64,000 bases of DNA from Chlorobiota bacterium (lineage in GTDB: Bacteria; Bacteroidota; Ignavibacteria; Kapaibacteriales; UBA961). The position numbers and the translations under genes are program-made. Below the pieces are notes generated by a model. It worked only from the letters and a program-made list of their open reading frames with translations, had not been told where the DNA came from and did not search any database. Location of the stretch: contig JBDHXA010000002.1 of assembly GCA_039810485.1 (NCBI GenBank), forward strand, positions 8,597 through 72,596, in the 5' to 3' direction. Of the stretch, positions 48,815-49,037 are shown piece after piece. Positions within the stretch are counted from its first letter, which is position 1; every line of letters starts with the position of its first letter.

Positions 48815-48830
48815 AGCGGCATTTCGACTA

Positions 48831-49004
48831 CGCTCAATGAACGCATTTCAGTTAAGGTCGCGCTGTGCGCACTCGAAACAAGCTCAATGAACGCATTTCA
48901 GTTAAAGTCGCGCTGTGCACACTCGAAACAAGCTCAATGAACGCATTTCAGTTAAGGTCGCGCTGTGCGCACTCGAAACAAGCTCAATGAGCGCATTTCA
49001 GTTA
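48831..49004. repeat. Tandem direct repeat, 50-bp unit x about 3.5, in the intergenic region upstream of the PPAD-like gene. Each unit contains the palindrome GTGCGCAC.
   Basis: The unit acgcatttcagttaaggtcgcgctgtgcgcactcgaaacaagctcaatga occurs at 48841, 48891 (2 mismatches) and 48941 (identical), with partial copies at both flanks. Confidence 0.85.
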
Positions 49005-49037
49005 GAAGTCAAGCTGAACGCGCAGACGAAGCGTGTC

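Follow-up and report, generated by a model that had tools for sequence, protein, structure and literature searches.

A 50-bp tandem array between an Hc1-like gene and a T9SS-secreted deiminase gene is probably a young, non-coding minisatellite

Short-unit minisatellites are common in bacterial spacers. Enhancer-binding proteins of the NtrC/NifA type act through repeated upstream activator sequences that lie ~100-250 bp upstream, and both a -24/-12 promoter and dyad-symmetric sites are required. Supply et al. reportedly found in 1997 that the MIRUs in the senX3-regX3 spacer give translational coupling through small ORFs, and from their work of 1997 and 2000 MIRUs are said to occur at ~40 loci, with ORFs that extend over the stop and start codons of the genes on either side. 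In the M. tuberculosis complex, the intergenic region of senX3-regX3 contains MIRUs (PMC2639699). In P. gingivalis, BrickBuilt is a 23-nt minisatellite carried inside a MITE and present in 19 copies (PMC4596501). One of these copies (BrickBuilt_15) adjoins the peptidylarginine deiminase gene, and 5 of the 19 adjoin genes for T9SS cargo (PMC4596501). M. tuberculosis also has 54-58-bp promoter tandem repeats that lie 12-29 bp upstream of cysG and lpdA; a change in their copy number, which occurs at 1e-2 to 1e-3 per chromosome, alters promoter strength (PMC12817950).

We examined a 50-bp tandem array in a 64-kb window (the whole stretch of DNA analysed). By analogy, the array would work most like a bacterial variable-number tandem repeat (VNTR), and its closest functional precedent appears to be the promoter tandem repeats of M. 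tuberculosis. It shares with the dop, lpdA and cysG repeats (PMC12817950) non-coding units of ~50-58 bp, a few head-to-tail copies, a position tens of bp before a start codon, and co-directional downstream genes. However, the M. tuberculosis unit is a promoter and its copy variation is documented, whereas no promoter motif was found in the unit studied here, whose organism was found in one sequencing run. With the MIRUs and related VNTRs the array has in common 40-100-bp tandem units that carry small ORFs, in the spacer of two co-directional and probably co-transcribed genes. MIRUs are dispersed and their ORFs overlap both neighbours, while our array has one known locus and carries ORFs that are at chance level and overlap the downstream gene alone. 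Like BrickBuilt, it is an intergenic, spacer-less minisatellite of the Bacteroidota-Chlorobi-Ignavibacteria group, placed beside T9SS cargo genes that include a PAD gene. In contrast, the 23-nt unit, the leader and tail with terminal inverted repeats, and the 19 dispersed copies of BrickBuilt were not seen for the window array.

All genes around the array share the minus strand, with FAA-hydrolase (52836-52168) first, then an S8 protease (52184-49278) that has a T9SS sorting domain, and after it Hc1, array, PAD, His_Phos_1 and sigma-54 activator. The gene directly upstream of the array encodes a 73-aa histone-H1-like protein of the Hc1 family (49038..49259; Pfam PF07432, 3e-14). Downstream lies a gene of the PAD_porph (agmatine/peptidyl-arginine deiminase) family, which encodes a 712-aa protein with a T9SS C-terminal sorting domain (46646..48784; Pfam 2.3e-36 and 1.4e-7). 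These two family assignments confirmed those of the original prediction, which had been made from the sequence alone. Co-directional with the PAD gene are a His_Phos_1 phosphatase gene (45972-46580) and a gene for a receiver-less sigma-54 activator with a Fis-type HTH (44612-45958). By the names that homologues bear in public sources, the organism falls among Kapabacteria, Ignavibacteria and Bacteroidota MAGs.

The start of the PAD gene had earlier been placed at 48814, but this position is the TTG of the longest ORF. The gene call on a contig from Logan (a collection of assemblies of public sequencing runs) gave a 712-aa PAD protein starting at the ATG at 48784, and the identical 712-aa sequence is present on the NCBI record. 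A signal-peptide-like N-terminus follows this ATG. The PAD gene thus most likely starts at 48784, and, with this start, the distance from the array to the start codon is 47 nt and not 17 nt.

Tandem Repeats Finder scored the array at 321 (48832..49010), with a period of 50 bp, 3.6 copies and 94% matches, which made this the second-strongest tandem array of the window. Copy 1 (48832-48881), the one nearest the PAD gene, showed no mismatches to the unit and carries the palindrome GTGCGCAC at 48865-48872. Copy 3 (48932-48981) is identical to copy 1, with GTGCGCAC at 48965-48972. Copy 2 (48882-48931) differs by two mismatches, G>A at unit positions 25 and 38, and its palindrome is changed to GTGCACAC. 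A diverged fourth copy occupies 48982-~49031; over its first 23 nt it differs at 1 position, and after a 1-nt insertion the similarity falls to ~65%. A nucleotide profile of the unit aligned to this copy up to about unit position 39 (48982-49023, E = 2.7e-6). As the fourth copy begins at 48982, little of the spacer on the Hc1 side is left outside the array, which spans from 6 nt after the Hc1 stop codon (49038-49040) to 47 nt before the PAD ATG. None of 100 shuffled sequences contained a full-unit match, as against three in the array. The account of ~3.5 near-perfect 50-bp copies filling the gap between the two genes, with copies 1 and 3 identical and copy 2 carrying two substitutions, thus held when the unit matches and the per-position differences were determined.

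The copies lie head-to-tail without spacers, and the entire 50 bp is repeated. Since the copies abut and there are no unique spacers, the array is not a CRISPR array, as had been stated before. We also set aside, by reasoning, a diversity-generating retroelement: copy 2 has A where copies 1 and 3 have G, but the copies abut, the array is non-coding and the differences are two transitions only. Plasmid iterons or a replication origin were likewise rejected, the unit being too long and no DnaA-box-like motif being seen by eye. Within the unit itself, no 25-bp half-unit sub-repeat was found. The motif AAGTC is common to copies 2 and 4, and AGGTC to copies 1 and 3, and this A-B-A-B' pattern suggests that a 100-bp double unit was duplicated (a 2 x 100-bp higher-order duplication).

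The array is separated from the PAD start codon, on the minus strand, by a unique A-rich spacer of 47 nt (48785..48831) without a recognisable promoter. The G+C of the array was 0.47 (measured over 48800-48999), against 0.32-0.385 in the adjacent spacer and gene ends. Such a G+C would not be expected of an array born from the AT-rich spacer DNA around it, and may point to an origin elsewhere. The similarity of the flanks to the unit was not significant, as 75 of 500 shuffles scored as well for the 47-nt spacer and 28 of 500 for the other flank; an origin of the array from its flanking sequence was therefore rejected.

We further evaluated the array in an independent assembly. Two Logan contigs from the run SRR19427095 were 100% identical to the window and stopped inside the array, at 48961 and 48861. 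Each contig end lies exactly 30 nt beyond the last copy-specific base. Since a k = 31 assembly graph breaks in this way only at real repeats, the repeat is truly present in the reads, and the variant copy 2, as an anchor, makes the assembled copy number plausible. The flanking proteins were found in this one Logan run and in an NCBI entry for the identical sequence. Each forms a 90%-identity cluster by itself, and the window proteins searched had no relative of more than 64% identity in ~15 billion sequences. From the behaviour of other bacterial VNTRs, the copy number of the array probably varies in the population.

When we examined coding potential, we observed stop codons in all six frames of the array, and the unit length of 50 is not a multiple of 3; the array is non-coding. 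Each unit does contain a 14-codon ATG-initiated ORF (MRSLSLFRVRTARP) on the strand of the gene. There are four such mini-ORFs on the minus strand (48996->48952, 48946->48902, 48896->48852 and 48846->48772). The last one has 24 codons and ends 12 nt past the PAD ATG, and the first does not reach the Hc1 stop codon. As 36% of shuffled units yield such an ORF on a given strand, the mini-ORFs are at chance level.

We also searched for promoters around the array. The motif TAnnTTTG, a -7 box of the Bacteroidota type, was enriched 5-fold in the 100 nt upstream of window genes (3.49 vs 0.70 per kb) and was present upstream of 14 of 43 window genes. This enrichment suggests that the lineage uses Bacteroidota-style housekeeping promoters. 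A perfect TAnnTTTG, TATTTTTG, lies at 49286..49293 on the minus strand, its last base 26 nt before the Hc1 ATG; it is likely the Hc1 promoter and a candidate source of read-through across the array. A second perfect match, TACTTTTG (49076..49083, minus strand), falls in the 3'-terminal part of the Hc1 coding sequence, and is possibly an internal promoter or a chance occurrence (~0.2 expected per 300 nt). From the Hc1 stop codon to the PAD ATG, a consensus scan found no TAnnTTTG even with one mismatch, although the box is present upstream of only 14 of 43 window genes. A consensus scan for sigma-70-like -35/-10 pairs also gave none on this strand of the spacer; both scans are weak evidence. The original prediction had proposed looking downstream of the array for a -24/-12 or a Bacteroidota promoter element, and the scans found neither.

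No intrinsic terminator was found after the Hc1 stop codon on the minus strand. The only hairpin, at 49018-49036, was rejected as an Hc1 terminator: its score came from the plus strand and included G-T pairs, and on the strand of the gene it lacks a T-run. With no Hc1 terminator and no visible PAD promoter, read-through from the putative Hc1 promoter into PAD is the most likely way for the array to be transcribed, as a spacer between the two cistrons. An RNA element was also rejected. By minimum free energy, the array folded no better than shuffles on either strand (z = -0.47 and +1.56); Rfam gave nothing better than E = 0.86 locally, and nothing at the gathering score over the whole window; and a tRNA and tmRNA search found none.

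The original prediction read the array as an iterated operator or enhancer-like array, for the sigma-54 activator or for the Hc1-family protein. It rested on three identical GTGCGCAC sites, but we found two, at 48865 and 48965, as one of the substitutions in copy 2 converts the site into GTGCACAC. The remainder of the 64 kb does not contain GTGCGCAC. Of random or shuffled 50-mers, a fraction of 0.17-0.21 should carry a perfect 8-bp palindrome by chance, and the window contains 257 such palindromes, or ~0.2 per 50 bp. Since the copies are duplicates, the recurrence of the palindrome counts as one event, and the 8-bp palindrome is not significant. A search of the unit for a dyad with arms of at least 5 and a spacer of 0-20 found none, where shuffled units average 0.87. 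The phasing of the sites, described as roughly five helical turns, also did not hold. The 50 bp correspond to 4.76 turns of 10.5-bp B-DNA, so that successive copies are rotated by ~86 degrees and do not lie on one face of the helix.

The array resembles the NtrC/NifA upstream activator sequences in having repeated sites ~100-250 bp upstream of a gene and an activator gene nearby. However, the -24/-12 promoter and the dyad sites that such a system needs were both looked for and not found. The -24/-12 element (TGGCAC-N5-TTGCW) was absent on the minus strand from 48700-49300, whether up to 3 mismatches were allowed or GG/GC was kept, and it was also absent upstream of the orthologous PAD gene in the related locus L003. 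In place of a dyad-symmetric site in every unit, there is a 4+4 palindrome in 2 of the 3 full copies. With no -24/-12 element, no dyad, a palindrome at chance level and a relative without the repeat, the operator or enhancer reading was not supported. One sequence, TGGCAGAACAGTTGCA (46799->46784, minus strand), is one mismatch from the sigma-54 -24/-12 consensus. It lies inside the 3' end of PAD, ~200 nt upstream of the His-phosphatase and activator genes, and is unconserved at the equivalent L003 position. We rejected it as a sigma-54 promoter, as it probably arose by chance from the coding sequence of the T9SS sorting domain.

To find the unit elsewhere, we used a 3-mismatch pattern search, blastn-short and a nucleotide profile, and none gave a second copy in the window or the fetched loci. 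A weak profile match at 59686-59725 (E = 0.008) falls inside a 416-aa ORF and was taken as chance. Neither IMG/VR nor 241 million metagenome records contained an exact match to the 23- or the 25-nt unit core, 185,579 species genomes (one genome per species) contained none to the 23-nt core, and blastn of the unit against plasmid and phage collections gave no match. Dispersal at many loci, which the original prediction had named as the finding that would count against it, was thus not seen in the 64-kb window or in the public collections searched.

The two gene blocks that meet at the array were followed in related loci. The locus with the closest PAD orthologue (L003) keeps the PAD-HisPhos-activator block, with 61%, 82% and 70% identity respectively. 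There the block stands behind a divergent acetyltransferase gene with a 155-bp spacer, and this spacer contains no repeat. The loci with the closest S8 orthologue (L084 and L085) keep FAA-S8-Hc1, with 66%, 64% and 57% identity. The Hc1 context of these relatives was reached via the S8 protease; a search for Hc1 homologues returned the query itself and nothing else. In L084 and L085, Hc1 is followed by a textbook terminator (GCCGCA...TGCGGC and then TTTTTATTT) and a convergent tRNA-synthetase gene, and no repeat was found after Hc1. The genes that neighbour the junction in the relatives are missing from the entire 64-kb window. As these across-junction genes are absent, the position of the array coincides exactly with a synteny breakpoint, and the spacer is young in evolutionary terms.

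The terminators of the relatives (L084 4195-4245 and L085 3145-3195) are strong intrinsic terminators that overlap the Hc1 stop codon, and the corresponding stretch of the window (49000-49040) is without one. As the window Hc1 gene has no terminator, its loss or replacement would date from the time when the PAD block came to lie next to Hc1. Among 80 more distant loci (together with the other loci, 620 kb of sequence), no comparable array was found upstream of PAD. This missing conservation shows the youth of the array and not an absence of function.

Together, these results establish a true tandem array that is non-coding, has no detectable relatives elsewhere, lies on a synteny breakpoint, and shows neither a recognisable promoter or sigma-54 element nor an extended dyad or RNA structure. 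It is a real feature of an ordinary kind, and shows no sign of a dedicated function. The array is probably a non-coding minisatellite, young and specific to its lineage, with four 50-bp copies placed head-to-tail in a recent spacer. Under this explanation, the FAA-hydrolase/S8 protease/Hc1 and PAD/His-phosphatase/sigma-54 activator blocks would have become neighbours and thereby created the spacer, and the array would probably have been built in it as two 100-bp double units. The array would have been made, and its copies would be kept near-identical, by replication slippage or by unequal recombination between them. That copy 1 equals copy 3 and copy 2 is just two transitions away points to a recent expansion or homogenisation. 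Any effect on PAD expression would be a by-product of length or copy number and not of sequence-specific binding. The fallback of the original prediction, an element able to act through copy-number change, is plausible and agrees with the minisatellite explanation and with the 54-58-bp promoter repeats of M. tuberculosis (PMC12817950).

Other explanations were weighed against this one. Each unit might hold a promoter or promoter-enhancing element for the PAD-HisPhos-activator operon, with changes in copy number tuning expression heritably and reversibly. The array ends 47 nt before the PAD start codon, its copies are nearly identical, no other PAD promoter is visible, and there is the precedent at cysG and lpdA of M. 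tuberculosis (PMC12817950). Such a promoter repeat is nevertheless unlikely, as the unit lacks, even with one mismatch, the TAnnTTTG box that is enriched upstream of window genes, and has neither a sigma-70-like -35/-10 pair on the strand of the gene nor a -24/-12 element. The array could alternatively be one insertion of a low-copy dispersed repeat, that is, a minisatellite in a MITE-like or REP-like element. Its location on a synteny breakpoint, a G+C richer than the surroundings (a purely local origin from AT-rich spacer DNA leaves the value of 0.47 unexplained) and the BrickBuilt precedent in P. gingivalis (PMC4596501) would fit such an element, and 64 kb is too short to exclude a family with one copy per ~100 kb. 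We found, however, no second copy in the window or the Logan contigs, and the unit was unmatched in the public collections searched. Inverted repeats bracketing the array were also looked for and not found, and the flanks of just 6 nt and 47 nt leave no room for a leader and tail; we thus regard a dispersed element as distinctly unlikely.

The proposal that a nearby sigma-54 activator or Hc1 binds GTGCGCAC every 50 bp, and so controls the PAD gene, draws on the activator with a Fis-type HTH encoded two genes downstream in a conserved block, and on the absence of the palindrome from the rest of the 64 kb. It appears very unlikely, given a palindrome in 2 copies alone (with a chance of ~0.2 per 50-mer), a unit without dyad arms of at least 5, sites off one helix face, no -24/-12 element on the strand of the gene in 48700-49300 or upstream of the L003 orthologue, and an orthologous locus that has the same activator without the array. 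We consider it highly improbable that the mini-ORFs are tandem leaders coupled translationally to the PAD gene in the manner of MIRUs. Four ATG-initiated ORFs, the last overlapping the PAD start, would suit this reading, and the MIRUs of the senX3-regX3 spacer are said to behave so. Against it, more than a third of shuffled units (36%) give such an ORF, both copy-2 substitutions are non-synonymous (R>C and P>L), and the first ORF does not overlap the Hc1 stop codon. An assembly artefact, in which the assembler wrongly expanded a single-copy sequence, has in its favour that the array (179-200 bp) is longer than one short read. It is extremely improbable, since the second assembly breaks exactly where a k = 31 graph must branch given at least 2 copies, and the variant copy 2 and diverged copy 4 are unique anchors.

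Beyond the minisatellite explanation, the array might be a copy-number-tunable regulatory leader for the T9SS-secreted deiminase operon, or one case of a wider Bacteroidota-Kapabacteria habit of placing hypermutable, non-coding minisatellites beside genes for secreted enzymes. We hold this to be a doubtful, speculative reading; it fits BrickBuilt_15 beside the P. gingivalis PAD gene and the short-unit arrays at 8 of 80 distant PAD loci (described below). If it were true, the arrays would generate heritable, reversible diversity of expression. Were the copy number to vary and to change the expression of the deiminase operon, promoter-repeat phase variation would be extended from mycobacteria to an uncultured T9SS-bearing lineage. 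The variation of such arrays is systematically hidden because they break short-read assemblies, as both Logan contigs end inside the array.

AT-rich tandem arrays of 21-23 bp (or 42-44 bp) were observed within a few hundred bp of the PAD gene in 8 of the 80 distant loci, mostly in Bacteroidales MAGs. They lie mostly just downstream of the PAD gene (L058 701-1072; L061 5895-5999; L067 5131-5251; L068 2443-2519; L076 2470-2662; L077 2119-2212 and 5001-5086; L081 2774-3108; L083 5115-5197). The arrays of L076 and L081 have nearly the same 42-nt consensus. These arrays beside distant PAD genes resemble the 23-nt BrickBuilt minisatellite-MITE of P. gingivalis (PMC4596501).

Another tandem repeat of the window lies within a gene. 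At 3622-5409 on the plus strand, a protein like the succinyl-CoA ligase alpha subunit (CoA_binding and Ligase_CoA) is encoded with a long basic C-terminal tail. The tail consists of about six tandem 31-aa repeats, each with an AT-hook-like RGRPKGS motif, and corresponds to a 93-bp x 5.4 tandem repeat at 4778-5286 (91% matches). It is unusual for a metabolic enzyme to carry a tail of the DNA-binding type. Judged by its length, the Logan contig of 43.7 kb would stop near window position 5180, which is inside this 93-bp repeat.
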